From NCBI GenBank assembly GCA_028716265.1, contig JAQUQD010000003.1, positions 6,191 to 70,190 of the forward strand: DNA of 64,000 bases, given 5' to 3'. Positions within the stretch are counted from its first letter, which is position 1, and each line of letters opens with the position of its first letter. The notes under the pieces were generated by a model. It saw only the letters and a program-made list of their open reading frames with translations, ran no database searches and was not told the DNA's origin. This document shows, one piece after another, positions 34,678-42,385 of this stretch. A program made the position numbers and the translations under genes. Source of the stretch: Bacteroidales bacterium (lineage in GTDB: Bacteria > Bacteroidota > Bacteroidia > Bacteroidales > JAGONC01).

Positions 34678-35988
34678 ATGTCATTTCTATTTACTTCAGA
34701 GTCCGTATCGGAAGGACATCCAGATAAAATAGCCGATCAGATTTCCGACGCCCTGCTGGATGAATTCCTGAAAAGGGATCCCGATTCGAAAGTGGCTTGC
34801 GAAACCCTGGTCACGACCGGTTTGGTTGTATGTGCCGGGGAAGTTCTGACCAGCTGCTGGGTGGACATTCAGAAGGTGGTCAGGGATACGATCAGAAATA
34901 TCGGATATACGAAAGCGGAATATAAATTCGATGCCGATTCGTGCGGGGTTCTCAGTGCCATCCATGAGCAGTCGCAGGACATTACGCGCGGTGTGGTCAG
35001 GAAGGACAAATACGAACAGGGCGCCGGCGACCAGGGGATGATGTTCGGTATGGCCTCGCGGGAGATGGACAACTACATGCCGATGCCCATCGAACTGGCC
35101 CATATCTTCGTTCAGCAACTGGCCAAAATAAGAAAGGAAACTGACCTGATGCCCTATCTCAGGCCCGACTCCAAATCCCAGGTGACCATCGAATACGACG
35201 ACCAGGGCAAGCCCATAAGGATCCATACCATCCTGGTTTCCACGCAGCATGATGACTGGATCAAGCCCGAGGGGCCAGGAGAAGAAGCTCAGCGAGAAGC
35301 GGATGAGAAAATGAACCGGAAGATTCGCGACGACATCCGTAATATACTGATACCAAGAATATTAAAATCCAATGATGTCCCGCAAAGAGTCATTAAATTA
35401 TTCGACGACTCGTACCAGCTGCATGTGAATCCTACCGGGAAGTTCGTCATTGGGGGCCCTCATGGTGATTCAGGCGTTACAGGCCGGAAGATCATCGTGG
35501 ACACATACGGCGGAAAAGGTTACCACGGTGGCGGAGCATTCTCAGGGAAGGATGCATCGAAGGTTGACCGTTCGGCAGCCTATGCCGCGCGACATATCGC
35601 CAAAAACCTTGTGGCCGCTGGTGTGGCCGATGAAGTGCATGTGCAGATCGCCTATGCCATTGGTATAGCCAGACCCCTGAGCGTCAACATCAATACCATG
35701 AATACTGTCAGGATCCGCAAAAGAAACGGAGAGCTCTGGAAAGACCATGAGATCGCCCAAAAAGTGGAAAACATCTTCGATCTGAGGCCCCGCGCCATCA
35801 TCGAACGCTTTGGACTGATGAATCCCATCTTTTTACCCACAGCCACCTACGGACATTTTGGGAGAGATCCTTATAGGAAAAAAGTGGAGTTCTACCACAA
35901 CGATTCCATCGTGAAAAAGGAGGTGGAATTTTTCACCTGGGAAAAACTCGACTACATCGATCGGATAAAGGAGGCTTTTAACGCCTGA
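34678..35988 (+). CDS. metK: S-adenosylmethionine synthetase
   Basis: 436 aa. [31 protein letters not shown], and GGGAFSGKD. Confidence 0.95.
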
Positions 35989-36715
35989 CGACCAGCTTGC
36001 CCGAAGCTACCGACTTACCCCCGGCGCTTAGCGTATAGAAATACATTCCCTCCTGCAGATCGAAGGTGGGCAGTGTCACTTTCCCCTGGCCTTCCGTGAG
36101 TACAGCTTCTTTGACCACTGATCCCAGCAGGTTGTGCACCTCGAGCTTCGCTGTCTGGATCCCGCCAGGCAACGAATAATCAAAGGAAACCGTATTACCG
36201 GCTGGATTTGGATACGCCTGTGAAAGCCGGACCTGGCCGGGTAGATCGCCGTTCAGCCCAAGATACCCAGAGATAAAGTTCACCACAACGCAAACACTGT
36301 CATTGACATTGCCTTCAATGAAAAGCGTGTACTTGACCTTGGATGTTCCCTGGATCCCATTTGGCATGTAATCCGCATATAACTGATCTTCTACCAGCTG
36401 GCCTGCAGCTAATGTATAGGAACCGGGCGATTCAACGGTTCCGGGAGGGTAGCAGGAACCTCCGAAACAGAAATAATGCGTCGTGTTTTCAATAACACTG
36501 ACTTCATGCATTTTTACTTTTACCGGGACACTGACGCTGCTGATGTTCTTGAATCCCAAATGTATGGTAATGAGTGGCTCAGATGGATTTTCCAGAATGA
36601 CTGCGTCCTGGCCGTTGGCCAAAAGTTGGTCCTGGTAATAGAGTTCTAGGGATTGTGAGTATCCTTTGAAAAGGAACAGGCTGCATACAAGAATCAGAGG
36701 GACTATTTTTTTCAT
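35978..36715 (-). CDS. secreted protein with T9SS C-terminal sorting domain
   Basis: Signal peptide [21 protein letters not shown] from ATG 36715. The C-terminal CTD-like region reads [14 protein letters not shown]...[23 protein letters not shown]. Confidence 0.65.
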
Positions 36716-36760
36716 ACGGTAAAGGTTTTCACGAATAAACAATGAATGCAACATCCGCTG

Positions 36761-36768
36761 CAAAATTA
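36761..36768 (-). promoter_or_regulatory. candidate -7 box (TAATTTTG on minus strand) for the 36715 gene
   Basis: Plus strand reads caaaatta, 46 nt upstream of ATG 36715. Confidence 0.35.
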
Positions 36769-36868: not shown

Positions 36869-36876
36869 TATCTTTG
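36869..36876 (+). promoter_or_regulatory. candidate -7 box TATCTTTG for the TGA-containing gene
   Basis: Exact TAnnTTTG, 24 nt upstream of ATG 36900. No comparable box precedes the ORF-track start 37038. Confidence 0.5.
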
Positions 36877-36899: not shown

Positions 36900-38564
36900 A
36901 TGATTAAAAAATTACTTCTTTTTGTATGCATGGTGCTTCCCTTCTTTGTTTTCTCCCAGAGAGCAGAGAGAGCCAATGTGCTGATCGAAGTTTGCACAGG
37001 CACGTGGTGAAGCTTTTGTCCCGGATCAGCTGTCGGTGTGGACAGTTTGATTCTCGCAGGTCATAAAGTGGCTGTCATCAACAACCATGGCGGCGACTCT
37101 TATGAAAATGTTTACTCCGCGGCAAGAAATGCCTATTACAACCTGAGCGCCTATCCTACGGCTATGTTTGATGGCGTTGTTGACGATGGTTTTGGTGGGT
37201 ATCCCTGTCCTGAACCATACGGCAATTATGGCATTTACCTGCCTTTTGTGAACGACCGGCTGGCCATCGCCTCCCCGGTGCTCATGTCCACAGAATTTTT
37301 CCCGGTGGGGGTCAATGATTACCAGCTGGTGGCTCATATTACAAAAGTGGGCGATATCACCAATCCTAACCTGTACCTTCGGGCGGCCATCACCGAATCA
37401 CATGTCGCCCAGTCGTGGCAGTGCCTGGAGGAAGTCAGCCAGGTCAACCGGCTGATGATACCCGATGCCACGGGAACCGCTATCAGTTTCGCAAGCGGCA
37501 ACGAGGTGACCGTCACGCTGAATTTCACGGTGGATCCATCCTGGAATAAGGAAAACCTGAACCTGGTATCGTTCGTGCAGAATGATAACGGAAAGGAAGT
37601 ACTGCAGGCGCTTACCACTCCGTTCCCGCTCTTCTCCAGGGATGCTGTGCTGGCCGAGATGGAAGATATCGCCACTTCAAACTGTACGGGCGTTGTGCAA
37701 CCCACGTTCACCCTTTCCAACAACGGCGCTGAAGCCCTCACCAGCCTGTTGATCAACTACCAGATCAACAATGATCCGCTGGTCTCCTTCGAATGGACGG
37801 GTAACCTTCCCTATACCGGGTCAGAAACCATTCAGATGGATCCCATCACGTTTTCACCCGGAAGCAACAATACCTTCCTGGTTTATGGATCCGATCCCAA
37901 TGGCAACACCGACCAGAATTACCTTAACGACACCCTCTTCGCCAGTTTCCCTGCAGGCTGGGTATGCACCACATATAAAGTGGCGCTCACCCTCCAGACC
38001 GATGACAATCCGGGAGAAACGACCTACGGAGTGTACAACTCCCTCGGTGAGATGATCTACTCCGGAGGTCCGTTCGAAGCAGCCAACAGCATGGTAAGGG
38101 ATACGTTTGAACTGATGAACACCGACTGCTACAAGTTTGTCATGTTCGATGCAGGCTGCGACGGGCTGACAGGAGGCGGGTACTACTCGCTCAAGGAAGC
38201 CAAGTCAGGCGGGCACATGATCTATTTCCATGCAGTGGCGGATGCGTTCACCTGCAAGAAAATGACGGAATTCCAGATCGAATGGGTGGGGATGAATGAC
38301 CACCTGGCCTCCGAACCGGTGACCATCTATCCGAATCCGTTCAGCAAGTACACTGAACTGCGCCTGAACCTGCAAAAGACTGATAATGTGTCAGTTGTGG
38401 TATTCAATATCATTGGAAAACAGGTCTTTTCGCTTGACATGGGACAGCTTGCTGCCGGAGAACATCTCCTGCCACTAACCAGTGAACAGGTTTCCCGGGG
38501 TCTCAACTTCGTGAAGATCAGCATCGGTAACAAGGTGTATACGGAGAAACTGGTGCTGGAGTAA
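36900..38564 (+). CDS. T9SS-sorted thioredoxin-like (CxxC family) protein with in-frame TGA at codon 37: candidate UxxC selenoprotein (alternative: very recent pseudogene)
   Basis: ATG 36900 gives a signal peptide and MIKKLLLFVCMVLPFFVFSQRAERANVLIEVCTGTW-TGA(37008-37010)-SFCPGSAVGVDSLILAGHKV... in the same frame as ORF 37038-38564. The TGA aligns with Cys37 of TGTWCQFCPG in paralog 38721-40385. A hairpin follows the TGA. The gene has its own -7 box and terminator. C-terminal T9SS CTD (IYPNPFSKYTELRL...KVYTEKLVLE). Confidence 0.6.
37023..37053 (+). promoter_or_regulatory. SECIS-like stem-loop 12 nt downstream of the in-frame UGA
   Basis: GGAUCAGCUGUC-GGUGUG-GACAGU(U)UGAUUC: 12 bp including 2 G-U pairs, one bulged U (37048), and apical hexaloop GGUGUG (37035-37040) that starts 24 nt after the UGA. 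Confidence 0.5.
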
Positions 38565-38585
38565 ATAAATCAAGTCATTAAAGAA

Positions 38586-38622
38586 AAAGAGAGGTTGCAC
38601 ACGAGTGCAACCTCTCTTTTTT
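38586..38622 (+). terminator. strong rho-independent terminator after the TGA-containing gene
   Basis: aaagagaggttgcac-acga-gtgcaacctctcttt is a perfect 15-bp stem with a 4-nt loop, followed by a T-run. Confidence 0.85.
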
Positions 38623-38676: not shown

Positions 38677-38684
38677 TACTTTTG
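38677..38684 (+). promoter_or_regulatory. candidate -7 box TACTTTTG for the Cys paralog
   Basis: Exact TAnnTTTG, 37 nt upstream of ATG 38721. Confidence 0.45.
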
Positions 38685-38720: not shown

Positions 38721-40385
38721 ATGAGAAGATTTACCCTTTTATTTCCCCTGTTTATTACCATCGTTATGGTCAACGCCCAGCAGGTGGATCGCGACAAGGT
38801 GGTAGTGGAGATCGTCACCGGAACCTGGTGCCAGTTTTGCCCGGGTGCGGCCATGGGTGCCGAAGACCTGGTGGCCAACGGTAAAGAAGTAGCTATCGTG
38901 GAGTATCATGGAGGTGATGAGTACGAGAATTCCTCTGGTTTATCAAGGATCAGCTATTACAGTGTCACAGGCTATCCGACCGCAGTATTTGACGGTCTGC
39001 TGAAAGTTGTCGGTGGAGACCATACACAAAGCATGTACTCCCAGTACCTTCCCAAATACAATCAGCGGATCGCCGTCCCCTCTTCCTTCACTATTGATGT
39101 GCAGGGTGAAAACACCTGCCTGGTGAACTACAACCTGACGATCACTGTGAACAGGCTGGAGGCGGTGACCGGAACCCTCAGGTTGCATGTAGCCGTGACC
39201 GAGTCGGATATCCAGGAAAGCTGGCAGGGAATGTCGGAGCTGCAATGGGTCGAACGAATGATGGTGCCCAGTCAGAGCGGGACCTTGCTGGATTTCAGCA
39301 GCGGCGATACCCAGGTGATCAATCTCTCGTTTACCGTGGATGATTCCTGGGTGAGGGAAAATTCCGAAGTGACTGTATTCATCCAGAATGCGACCACTAA
39401 AGAGATCCTTCAGGGAATGAAAAAGAGCATGACGGATTTTCCCAATACCACTCTGGTGGATGCTTCCCTGCTCGAAGTTTACAACATTTCAGCTGCCAAT
39501 TGCTCCGGAGCGGTATCTCCCATCGTTACCCTGAGGAACAACGGGCTGAACAACCTGACCAACCTGGAGATCCGTTACAAGGTGAACGACAACGAGGAAG
39601 GCGTTCTGAACTGGACGGGTGATCTGGCCATGGGTGAGAAGGAAAATGTACCGCTGCCCCTGATCAATTTCCCGCTGAACGACCAGAATACTCTTATGAC
39701 GTATTGTACTAACCCGAATAATGTTCCCGACGAATGTCCAGACAACGATGATGCGAACACCGAATTTTCAGGAGAGGCCCTTATCGCGGCCAGCACCGTC
39801 TACCTGACCTACAGGCTGGATAATTTCCCGGACCAGACTACTTGGGAACTGAGGGATCAGACCGGAGCTGTTCTTTATGCTGATGGCCCTTTCCCGGGAC
39901 AGGCAGGCCTCTATGCTAAGGACACCTTCCAGCTGGCAGGGAACCAATGCTATGATTTCATCATTTATGACAGCCAGGGCAACGGGATCTGCTGTGAAAC
40001 CGGTGTCGGATTCTATTTATTGAAGGACTCGGATGGCCTGGTCCTGGTACAGGGCGGTGATTTTAGTTACAGTGATGTCATCAGTTTTGAGGTGGCGGGA
40101 GGAGTCGGGTTACCTGAAAACAAGGCCAACGGATCGGTTGCCCTCTACCCCAATCCAGCGAGTGATAGGACAACTATTGAAGTCATGCTGATGGAATCAG
40201 CCCCGGTGACTTTAAAAATCTATACTCTCACAGGTAAAATGGTCAAACTGATCGAAAAAGGGATGCTAAGTCCCGGAGAACATCAAATGTGGATCAATCT
40301 GTCGGGAGTTGATCCGGGAGCATATTTCATTCAGATCAATGCGGGAGAAGCAAACTGGACCAAGCAATTGTTTGTCCTGAATTAA
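38721..40385 (+). CDS. T9SS-sorted thioredoxin-like CxxC protein (Cys paralog of 36900-38564)
   Basis: MRRFTLLFPLFITIVMVNAQ signal peptide from ATG 38721, then VVVEIVTGTWCQFCPGAAMG. It aligns with the upstream gene along its whole length. C-terminal CTD LYPNPASDRTTIEV...ANWTKQLFVLN. Confidence 0.75.
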   Translation: MRRFTLLFPLFITIVMVNAQQVDRDKVVVEIVTGTWCQFCPGAAMGAEDLVANGKEVAIVEYHGGDEYENSSGLSRISYYSVTGYPTAVFDGLLKVVGGDHTQSMYSQYLPKYNQRIAVPSSFTIDVQGENTCLVNYNLTITVNRLEAVTGTLRLHVAVTESDIQESWQGMSELQWVERMMVPSQSGTLLDFSSGDTQVINLSFTVDDSWVRENSEVTVFIQNATTKEILQGMKKSMTDFPNTTLVDASLLEVYNISAANCSGAVSPIVTLRNNGLNNLTNLEIRYKVNDNEEGVLNWTGDLAMGEKENVPLPLINFPLNDQNTLMTYCTNPNNVPDECPDNDDANTEFSGEALIAASTVYLTYRLDNFPDQTTWELRDQTGAVLYADGPFPGQAGLYAKDTFQLAGNQCYDFIIYDSQGNGICCETGVGFYLLKDSDGLVLVQGGDFSYSDVISFEVAGGVGLPENKANGSVALYPNPASDRTTIEVMLMESAPVTLKIYTLTGKMVKLIEKGMLSPGEHQMWINLSGVDPGAYFIQINAGEANWTKQLFVLN

Positions 40386-42385
40386 AAAGGAAGATTACCC
40401 AGCAAGGCATCATCCACTTTGTACGGTAGGGTTACATTTAACAGCGGTTCCGAGGTCATGGCCCTTTGAATGGCGGTCATGGCACCCTGGTTCCTGGCCC
40501 AGCTGCGGCGTGCGATGCCGTTATTCACATCCCAGTGGAGCATCCTGCGAAGACGGACCTCCGCTTCATCGCTCCCATCCAGCAGTATTCCGAAACCGCC
40601 GTTGATCACCTCTCCCCAGCCGACGCCGCCGCCATTATGCAGCGACACCCATGTGGCCCCGCGGAACGCATCCCCGATCACGTTCTGTACCGCCATATCG
40701 GCGGTGAACCTTGAACCGTCGTAGATATTGGCTGTCTCCCTGAAGGGGGAATCCGTTCCCGAAACATCATGATGATCGCGGCCAAGGACGATCGGAGCAC
40801 TGACATTTCCCGTGCGGATGGCCTGGTTGAACGCCGAGGCAATCTCCATCCTTCCCATGGCATCGGCATAAAGGATCCTTGCCTGAGAGCCTACCACCAG
40901 CCTGTTGCGTCCCGCCTCCCTGATCCAATGGATATTATCTTCCATTTGTTCCCTTATATCTTCAGAAGCCCTGCCGGCGAGATGCTCCATGACTTCAAGG
41001 GCAATGGTGTCGGTCAGCTCCAGGTCCTTTGGATCGCAGGAAGTGCATACCCAGCGGAAAGGACCAAAACCATAGTCGAAGAAAAGCGGCCCCATGATGT
41101 TCTCCACATAGGAGGGATAGCGGTAAGCTCCATTCTCCCTGAAGATATCCGCACCTGCCCTTCCGGCTTCCAAAAGGAATGCGTTGCCGTAATCCCAGAA
41201 ATACATACCCATGGCCGAGACTTTGTTGATAGCCTCCACCTGCCTGCGGAGCGACTCGGAAACATACGACTTGAACGACACTGGATCCCTTACCATCAGT
41301 TCATTGGATTCTTCAAATGAAAGTCCGGCCGGGTAATAGCCACCGGCATAGGGATTATGAAGGGATGTCTGATCAGAACCAAGGTCGATGGCAATTTTCT
41401 CTTTGGCGAGTTTTTCCCAAAGATCGACCACATTGCCCTGGTATCCAAGGGAAACAGCCTCCTGCGAACACTGGGCGTTGATCATGCGTTCGATCAGCCG
41501 GCCGGGGTGGGAGTACACCTCATCCAGCCATCCCTGCTGATGGCGTTTCTGTGTCGCCTTGGGATTGATCTCTGCGATAACGCCCACACACCCTGCAATC
41601 ACGGCCGCTTTTGCTTGTGCGCCCGACATGCCGCCCAAACCCGAAGTAACATAGATCTTTCCTTTTATATCCCCTCGCTTCAGCATCCGGGCTGCATTCA
41701 TCAGGGTGATCGTAGTCCCGTGAACAATACCCTGCGGCCCGATGTACATGTACGATCCGGCCGTCATCTGGCCGTACTGGGTCACGCCCAGTGCATTGTA
41801 CCGTTCATAATCATCACGCGAAGAATAATTGGGGATCATCATGCCATTGGTCACGACCACCCGGGGAGCTTCGCGGTGCGAAGGGAAAAGGCCCAGCGGG
41901 TGCCCTGAATACATCGCCAGCGTCTGTTCATCCATCATTGTGGCCAGGTACTTCATGGTCAGCAGGTATTGCGCCCAGTTCTGGAACACGGCACCGTTGC
42001 CGCCATAGGTGATCAGTTCGTGCGGATGCTGGGCCACCGCCTCGTCGAGGTTGTTCTGGATCATCAGCATGATGGAGGCTGCCTGGCGGGAACGATGCGG
42101 GTACTCGTCGAGCGGGCGCGCGTGCATATGATAATCCGGACGGAACCGATACATATAGATGCGGCCGAAGGTTAGCAGCTCCTCTGCAAATTCAGGGGCA
42201 AGCTCAGCATGGTGCTTCGGTTCGAAATACCTGAGCGCATTCCGGACTGCCAGCTTCTTCTCCCCGGGGGTGAGGATGTCCTTTCGTACAGGCGCATGAT
42301 TGATGGTGGGATCCCAGGGTTTGCTTTCCGGCAGCTGGTCCGGAATACCCTGAAGAATGGCTTTTTGAAAATCCGTGATGGTCAT
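40382..42385 (-). CDS. hutU: urocanate hydratase
   Basis: 667 aa. VTSGLGGMSGAQAKAA, long NAD-binding core, and HNGGGVGWGEVINGGFG near the C-terminus. Confidence 0.93.
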   Translation of the reverse strand: MTITDFQKAILQGIPDQLPESKPWDPTINHAPVRKDILTPGEKKLAVRNALRYFEPKHHAELAPEFAEELLTFGRIYMYRFRPDYHMHARPLDEYPHRSRQAASIMLMIQNNLDEAVAQHPHELITYGGNGAVFQNWAQYLLTMKYLATMMDEQTLAMYSGHPLGLFPSHREAPRVVVTNGMMIPNYSSRDDYERYNALGVTQYGQMTAGSYMYIGPQGIVHGTTITLMNAARMLKRGDIKGKIYVTSGLGGMSGAQAKAAVIAGCVGVIAEINPKATQKRHQQGWLDEVYSHPGRLIERMINAQCSQEAVSLGYQGNVVDLWEKLAKEKIAIDLGSDQTSLHNPYAGGYYPAGLSFEESNELMVRDPVSFKSYVSESLRRQVEAINKVSAMGMYFWDYGNAFLLEAGRAGADIFRENGAYRYPSYVENIMGPLFFDYGFGPFRWVCTSCDPKDLELTDTIALEVMEHLAGRASEDIREQMEDNIHWIREAGRNRLVVGSQARILYADAMGRMEIASAFNQAIRTGNVSAPIVLGRDHHDVSGTDSPFRETANIYDGSRFTADMAVQNVIGDAFRGATWVSLHNGGGVGWGEVINGGFGILLDGSDEAEVRLRRMLHWDVNNGIARRSWARNQGAMTAIQRAMTSEPLLNVTLPYKVDDALLGNLPF

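Follow-up and report, generated by a model that had tools for sequence, protein, structure and literature searches.

A hairpin located at 37023–37053 of a 64,000-nucleotide (nt) stretch of Bacteroidales DNA (contig JAQUQD010000003.1 of assembly GCA_028716265.1; we refer to this whole stretch as the window) is very probably a functional bacterial selenocysteine insertion sequence (SECIS) element. It would serve the in-frame UGA codon at 37008–37010, within a gene for an HBP35/Omp28-like selenoprotein exported through the type IX secretion system (T9SS). That a SECIS-type stem-loop serves the UGA directly upstream of it was the central claim of an initial annotation of the window, made from its letters alone, and every test proposed there that we ran supported this claim. 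The mechanism is ordinary and of a known kind; the gene itself is outside the curated selenoprotein family and is mis-annotated in public records.

An in-frame UGA at the position of a catalytic cysteine

The gene comprises 554 codons on the (+) strand, running from an ATG at 36900 to a TAA stop at 38562–38564, and the TGA at 37008–37010 is codon 37, in frame as read from the sequence. The encoded N-terminus is MIKKLLLFVCMVLPFFVFSQRAERANVLIEVCTGTW-U-SFCPGSAVGVDSLILAGHK, where U stands for selenocysteine (Sec) and the residues before it end in VCTGTW. The features that carry the argument are as follows.

36900..38564, (+) strand: proposed selenoprotein gene (reading of the open reading frame, paralogue alignment and public gene calls)
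37008..37010, (+) strand: in-frame UGA, proposed to be read as selenocysteine (alignment with cysteine (Cys) homologues)
37008..37019, (+) strand: UxxC redox motif U-S-F-C (invariant columns; profile matches with thioredoxin and with the CxxC region of HBP35)
37023..37053, (+) strand: SECIS-type hairpin (folding and comparative alignment; conserved loop bases U37037 and G37038)
38721..40385, (+) strand: Cys paralogue of 554 amino acids (aa) with TGTW-C-QFCPG (internal control, without an equivalent hairpin)

The Cys paralogue, also 554 aa long, is 33% identical over its full length, and the alignment of the two products begins at residue 1. Because codon 37 of the paralogue is TGC (38829–38831, in the context TGTW-C-QFCPG), we conclude that the UGA replaces the first Cys of a thioredoxin-type TGTW-CxxC-PG motif; the UGA likewise aligns with the first Cys of CxxC in 110 Cys homologues. 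The U-S-F-C motif sits inside an invariant TGTW-[U/C]-xx-CPG block, with the invariant profile columns being T13, G14, T15, W16, C17, C20, P21 and G22, and alignments with the paralogue and the homologues show that the reading frame stays intact and is conserved both before and after the UGA.

TGA is an ordinary stop in 22 of the 50 long open reading frames (ORFs) of the window and several homologues also end in TGA, from which we conclude that the codon has not been reassigned. Some homologous genes use TGA twice, once at codon 37 together with a hairpin and once as the real stop; these are found in the fetched loci L003 (at 4458), L004, L020 (both genes) and L204 (at 1504). When the whole window was scanned for other UGA read-through candidates, none was convincing.

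The public record JAEAME010000010.1 (GCA_016294925.1), which contains the window at about 157.6–221.6 kb, calls the gene as 37038–38564, a protein of 508 aa starting from a GTG at 37038, and this called start falls within the hairpin loop. The nearest public proteins are all shortened likewise, and are named either ‘T9SS type A sorting domain-containing protein’ or ‘Omp28-related outer membrane protein’. Ahead of such shortened genes, gene callers leave orphan ORFs of 36–37 aa (L215, L219 and L222). The window's own protein occurs as identical copies on 4 contigs.

A stable hairpin directly downstream of the UGA

The hairpin is formed by a 5′ arm at 37023–37034 (GGAUCAGCUGUC) and a 3′ arm at 37041–37053 (GACAGUUUGAUUC), which enclose the apical loop GGUGUG at 37035–37040. 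Counted from the UGA, the stem begins after 12 nt and the loop after 24 nt (spacing 37011–37034); of the 12 pairs in the stem, two are G-U (37024/37052 and 37029/37047). Direct reading thus confirmed the stem, the hexaloop and both distances as the initial annotation had given them. Its bulged U at 37048 was misplaced: this base is paired to A37028, and the 3′ strand leaves U37046 unpaired in the minimum-free-energy fold or U37047 in the centroid fold.

As a 33-nt element, the hairpin folds at −13.8 kcal/mol (z = −3.67), a stability that no sequence among 200 dinucleotide shuffles reaches. The homologous segment of the Cys paralogue gives z = −0.59 and adopts a different fold, which agrees with an earlier impression, formed by eye, that the paralogue has no equivalent hairpin; the proposed comparison of free energies, against shuffles and against the paralogue, therefore came out in favour of the element on both counts. 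The signal is diluted in longer contexts (z = −1.84 for 63 nt and −0.85 for 101 nt). Across the window, a fold of this stability occurs in 0.6% of 33-nt windows, and 2.4% of all UGA triplets are followed, at a distance of 5–20 nt, by such a hairpin. Given these background rates, the hairpin alone is unusual but not decisive, and it is the comparative evidence that lifts the case above chance.

We also compared the element with the bSECIS consensus model for bacteria (Zhang and Gladyshev 2005, restated in PMC13188914), which describes an apical loop of 3–9 nt, an upper stem of 4–16 bp and a G in the first two loop positions (PMC13188914), at a UGA–loop spacing of 16–37 nt and an energy of −7.5 kcal/mol or lower (PMC13188914, Fig. 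2). The window element has a 6-nt loop beginning with GG, an upper stem of 5 bp, a spacing of 24 nt and an energy of −13.5 kcal/mol, and so passes these constraints as we re-implemented them, in line with the expectation that bacterial SECIS models would accept it. The element is located inside the ORF, and the in-frame UGA directly 5′ of it aligns with Cys in homologues; the structure of the element is kept in TGA-bearing orthologues and dispensable in Cys orthologues.

The hairpin accompanies the UGA among distant homologues

A DNA pattern for TGTW-TGA-xx-CPG, which carries no hairpin information, served to collect homologues from public genomes and metagenomes. Chance pattern matches in GC-rich genomes were discarded. 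In the matches retained, homologous frames are open both before and after the TGA; these make up about 50 distinct TGA-bearing homologues, with sources in Lentimicrobiaceae, other Bacteroidales, WOR-3, Planctomycetota and unbinned metagenomes. We found that a stable stem-loop follows roughly 10–20 nt past the UGA in all of them but one (L198, −7.9 kcal/mol), while the sequence of the hairpin differs between clades. The window clade has GGAUCAGCUGUC-GGUGUG-GACAG.UUGAUUC, the main Bacteroidales clade has CGGGCGCUGC-AAUGGGA-GCAGC.G.CCUG, and the WOR-3-like clade has a stem of approximately 7–8 bp (in L023, GUACAGCC/GGCUGUAC) closing a CGUG loop. The L198 gene (around 5905) places its Sec codon at residue 330 of a 616-aa protein, with the thioredoxin-like module following some 310 unrelated residues, an architecture that suggests domain shuffling of the Sec module.

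As controls, the same pattern with TGY in place of TGA retrieved the 110 Cys homologues. Over the 45 nt after the motif, the mean folding energy is −15.8 kcal/mol in Sec forms versus −10.0 kcal/mol in Cys forms. Synonymous recoding of each sequence removes the contribution of the amino acids to folding, and against this background the mean z is −1.46 for Sec and +0.05 for Cys forms (Mann–Whitney p = 6e-13, with the reservation that the sequences are not independent). This test replaced a crude 57-nt minimum-free-energy comparison, which we dropped on account of chance GC-rich matches (L008, L028, L039, L045 and L073).

In the main Bacteroidales clade, the stem is partly dictated by Ala-Ala-Met-Gly-Ala codons. 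There, synonymous and replaceable positions pair far more often in Sec than in Cys forms: columns 21/33 pair in 24 of 27 Sec forms versus 40% of Cys forms, and columns 15/41 in 100% versus 53%. The covariation observed in the Bacteroidales alignment was reached by none of 500 shuffles. The clade with the AAUGGGA loop has about 25 sequences, including L053 (5649 and 7436), L040, L029 and L036. Third positions of the Ala/Gly codons that flank its loop Met are nearly invariant A, and the same positions vary freely in Cys homologues.

Conservation and loss of the hairpin in the window's own clade

The window clade consists of 10 distinct Sec sequences, from genome, metagenome and read-assembly contigs. 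In their alignment 95% of cells pair in the hairpin, and sliding the partners by 1–3 columns reduces this to 27–41%. Compensatory changes are present at 37026/37050, where U-A becomes G-C in L004, and at 37031/37044, where U-A becomes C-G in L215; several further pairs change from G-C to G-U or from A-U to G-U. RNAalifold yields the same hairpin from this clade. In codons +5 to +15, synonymous diversity amounts to 0.167, versus 0.403 in the rest of the first 136 codons, and a value as low as that of the hairpin codons occurs in just 2 of 126 sliding windows. The loops of the clade are GGUGUG, GCUGUA, ACUGUA, GCUGCA and GCUUUA. Although U37037 is the third base of Gly, Ala or Thr codons, it is invariant; G37038 varies hardly at all, and the unpaired base of the stem is U, C or A in relatives. 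The GCUUUA loop, without the otherwise conserved G, belongs to the intact TGA-bearing gene at L222 1156–2826 (and to L223).

A protein search also identified a syntenic Cys orthologue (P0003, at 4001–5632 of L212, from metagenome Ga0116142_10000061) that is 69% identical to the window protein and reads TGTW-C-GWCPGAAVAADSLILAGH. Its neighbours match those of the window, namely an ABC ATPase, metK, a small opposite-strand sorting-domain gene, the gene itself and the 554-aa paralogue. The homologous 31-nt counterpart of the hairpin has a folding energy of −6.0 kcal/mol versus −13.5 kcal/mol in the window, and adopts a different structure. A rough neighbour-joining tree places this Cys form among the Sec forms. 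That a Cys orthologue placed there has lost the hairpin indicates that the hairpin follows the codon rather than the lineage, and suggests, from sequence, that the L212 gene is a Sec-to-Cys reversion. The prediction that the structure would be conserved in TGA-bearing orthologues was hence borne out, with compensatory changes in those orthologues and loss in the syntenic Cys form.

The window's Cys paralogue groups beside Sec clades in the same rough tree. Since both this paralogue and the L212 gene group with Sec forms, Sec/Cys switching appears to have occurred repeatedly. Several genomes hold multiple Sec paralogues, with at least four in the Lentimicrobiaceae metagenome-assembled genome Go_SlDig_bin_446 (L002, two genes in L003, and L004). 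L020 and L053 carry tandem pairs, L204 carries a divergent pair, and L215 has one gene at 1001–2671 and another from 2692. In some genomes, Sec and Cys copies stand side by side.

Points against a SECIS and alternative readings of the UGA

Several results weigh against a SECIS function. The genes selA, selB and selD and a tRNA-Sec were not found in the 64-kb window, in its 10-kb flanks on JAEAME010000010.1 or in the fetched loci: ARAGORN detected no tRNA-Sec in the window or in 45 Sec-bearing loci, and the E. coli proteins SelA, SelB and SelD, used as tblastn queries on the window and every fetched locus, had no match at 1e-3. In a 2006 survey, the Sec-decoding trait was likewise not detected in Bacteroidetes (PMC1794560). 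Taken singly, the window hairpin is not significantly more stable than its synonymous recodings (z = −1.25, p = 0.11); the amino-acid sequence that the element encodes already favours the fold, and two of the pairs in the stem are G-U. Covariation within the clade is modest, with 30–32 of 500 shuffles reaching the observed values. The upper stem of L222 is weakened by a C-A mismatch and a U-G pair (−9.8 kcal/mol), and this element may be a decaying or a tolerant SECIS. A G occurs in the first two loop positions of 9 of the 10 window-clade sequences, the exception being L004 (ACUGUA), and the main Bacteroidales clade with its AAUGGGA loop fails this rule wholly. Our re-implemented bSECIS filter is moreover permissive, passing 48% of Sec and 26% of Cys homologues, and because of this poor discrimination we kept it as a membership check for the window element alone. 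Finally, no Rfam family reached its gathering score across the window, and at E-values up to 10 the only match in 36900–37150 was an irrelevant long non-coding RNA.

That Sec machinery was not found in the sequence at hand, and that the loop of the largest homologue clade, AAUGGGA, fails the consensus SECIS rule, would both fit a hairpin that stimulates read-through of the UGA without SelB or Sec, for example by a near-cognate Trp or Cys, giving a full-length protein that is not a selenoprotein. We know of no bacterial precedent for structure-stimulated UGA read-through at a fixed catalytic codon, which counts against this possibility. The UGA always replaces the catalytic Cys of CxxC, which is the classic Sec/Cys pair, the geometry and spacing of the hairpin match those of SECIS elements in bacteria, and one related family of the Omp28 type already counts as Sec-containing (PMC2398784, PMC13188914). 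Read-through without Sec is thus, in our view, unlikely.

We consider it very improbable that translation terminates at the UGA and restarts, producing a 36-aa leader and a 508-aa protein from GTG 37038, with the hairpin incidental or modulating re-initiation. The public annotation does call a 508-aa protein, short upstream ORFs are called in three related loci as noted above, and GTG 37038 sits in the loop. However, the 508-aa product would have a type IX sorting domain but no signal peptide, and would also be missing the first CxxC residue. At the protein level, the 36 codons ahead of the UGA are conserved and can be aligned with the N-termini of Cys homologues, the loop in other clades holds no start codon, and the hairpin vanishes where the codon is Cys. 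Hardly any weight is left for a pseudogene with a nonsense mutation, or for a sequencing error, with a hairpin that arose by chance or as a by-product of the amino-acid sequence. Such an origin could draw on the 2.4% of window UGA triplets that have an equally stable hairpin nearby and on the Bacteroidales stem being partly set by its Ala-Ala-Met-Gly-Ala codons, but it is effectively refuted by the comparative data: the same TGA recurs in about 50 distinct sequences from independent assemblies, up to four paralogues per genome have all frames intact, the window protein is identical on its 4 contigs, and synonymous constraint lies exactly over the hairpin. The contrast between Sec and Cys homologues further argues against chance. 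A functional SECIS that serves the UGA is accordingly the reading that we carry forward.

Proposed decoding and predicted product

From these data, we infer SelB binding, Sec insertion, export and a redox function along the following lines. With the UGA at 37008–37010 in the ribosomal A site, the stem starts 12 nt further on, so that the hairpin would still be folded outside the mRNA channel. SelB, loaded with Sec-tRNA(Sec), would use its C-terminal domain to bind the apical loop with the conserved U37037 and G37038, and would deliver selenocysteine, averting termination. The product would consist of a signal peptide, a thioredoxin-like domain of the Omp28/HBP35 type with an attacking Sec (UxxC), a middle region and a sorting domain, and would be a secreted or cell-surface redox selenoprotein. 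The parts of the gene that bear on this product and its expression are listed below.

36869..36876, (+) strand: match to a TAnnTTTG-type −7 promoter, TATCTTTG (motif match, weak evidence)
36900..36959, (+) strand: putative signal peptide, MIKKLLLFVCMVLPFFVFSQ (judged by eye; conserved in orthologues; upstream of the UGA)
36972..37619, (+) strand: thioredoxin-like/Omp28-HBP35-like domain, approximately residues 25–240 (Pfam, NCBIfam and profile matches)
38325..38555, (+) strand: type IX secretion C-terminal sorting domain, residues 476–552 (PF18962, TIGR04183)
38583..38622, (+) strand: intrinsic-terminator-like hairpin of 18 pairs followed by a T-run, just 3′ of the stop codon

The Sec protein scores 34.3 bits with Pfam Omp28 (PF11551), just under the cut-off of 34.9, and the Cys paralogue scores 38.6 bits. 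The sorting domain exceeds its cut-offs with both models (PF18962, 36.8 versus 27 bits; TIGR04183, 41.5 versus 23 bits). Only the read-through product combines the putative signal peptide with the sorting domain, and the putative signal peptide would be needed for export as T9SS cargo.

Genomic context

The sequence TAnnTTTG, which we take to be the Bacteroidota −7 promoter motif, is mildly enriched in the window (35 matches versus 25 expected), and many copies lie just upstream of ORF starts. In the proposed selenoprotein gene, 23 nt separate the box at 36869–36876 from the ATG at 36900. The paralogue has a TAnnTTTG box of its own at 38677–38684 (+), about 37 nt before its ATG. With these separate boxes and the strong terminator-like hairpin between them, the two paralogues look like separate transcription units, and the proposed selenoprotein gene looks monocistronic.

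Directly upstream, and divergent from the proposed selenoprotein gene, is a gene at 35978–36763 (−) for a 261-aa protein in which a type IX sorting domain is the only domain; this gene is kept at the same position in L210–L212, L215 and L217. At 40382–42385 (−) is the urocanate hydratase gene hutU (408 bits versus a cut-off of 375), whose ORF also gives strong sub-threshold matches to the models for thiourocanate hydratase and S-methyl-thiourocanate hydratase. A gene of the hutU family adjoins a Cys homologue in L216 as well.

A clade of putative exported selenoproteins

Literature searches that paired selenocysteine with Omp28, with type IX secretion or with Lentimicrobium found nothing on this family. 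On balance, we think that the gene probably belongs to a sizeable clade of T9SS-exported selenoproteins, cell-surface or extracellular, that is unannotated in the public records examined and spread over anaerobic-digester and sediment Bacteroidota, WOR-3 and Planctomycetota. Such a clade would have up to four Sec paralogues per genome and repeated Sec/Cys switching in which the hairpin is gained or lost with the codon, and would use at least two SECIS designs, one of which (AAUGGGA) lies outside the consensus model of SECIS-based gene finders.

For annotation, the gene and about 50 distinct relatives in public assemblies have been called in an N-terminally shortened form, without signal peptide and catalytic residue, and the curated selenoprotein model that should catch them falls short of them. 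In biological terms, selenocysteine would be placed in type IX secretion cargo, that is, at the surface of anaerobic Bacteroidota; the nearest relative to have been characterised, HBP35 of Porphyromonas gingivalis, is a Cys protein. As a matter of method, the matched Sec and Cys orthologues at one locus constitute a natural experiment in which the hairpin travels with the UGA, and the Bacteroidales AAUGGGA loop would be an example of a SECIS that consensus-based finders reject.

Comparison with known systems

HBP35 of P. gingivalis (PDB 5y1a) has the same N-terminal thioredoxin-like CxxC context (VVLEVFTAEWCGYCPG) and a C-terminal Por/type IX secretion domain. It is the best solved-structure match of a family profile of the N-terminal domain (E = 1e-6), with thioredoxin 1fo5 also matched (E = 1e-3). 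HBP35 is reported to have thioredoxin activity and to be secreted in a type IX-dependent manner (PMC2907840, PMC3120885). HBP35 differs in having Cys rather than Sec, and would for that reason be without a SECIS; at 344 residues it is also shorter than the window protein, and the similarity is distant.

The curated family of Omp28-related selenoproteins, NF045500, shares the Omp28-type thioredoxin-like fold, UxxC, many Cys homologues and a SECIS-like hairpin after the TGA. A 2026 review equates it with ‘hypothetical protein GOS_C’ of Zhang and Gladyshev 2008 (PMC13188914), a UxxC thioredoxin-fold family from the Global Ocean Sampling with 74 Sec and 312 Cys sequences and a predicted SECIS (PMC2398784). 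Against this model, with its cut-off of 200 bits, the window protein scores 39 bits (E = 6e-10) and representatives of the other Sec clades 49–83 bits. With scores so far below the cut-off, the window protein and the other Sec clades stand outside the curated family. Members of NF045500 are curated as selenoproteins, whereas the TGA-bearing clades described here carry no selenoprotein annotation in the public records examined.

The fdhF element of E. coli, the archetype defined by experiment, has a predicted stability like that of the window element under the same folding (−14.2 to −14.9 versus −13.5 to −14.9 kcal/mol), and both loops begin with GGU. The minimal fdhF element has a spacing of 11 nt after the UGA, to which the 12 nt ahead of the window stem come close. 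In contrast, the loop of fdhF is a 4-nt GGUC, whose G and U contact SelB, located 18 nt after the UGA, and that of the window element has 6 nt at 24 nt. The G/U content of the loop had been likened to fdhF in the initial annotation, but this was not supported for the 5′ GG, which is not conserved in the window clade; the conserved loop bases there are the invariant U at position 3 and the nearly invariant G at position 4. The accompanying analogy between the bulged U and that of fdhF did not stand up, because the unpaired U of fdhF is on the 5′ strand and the unpaired base here is on the 3′ strand, where relatives have C or A as often as U; the window element has no unpaired U on its 5′ strand below a GGUC loop. 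From the bSECIS consensus, the window element differs in nothing.

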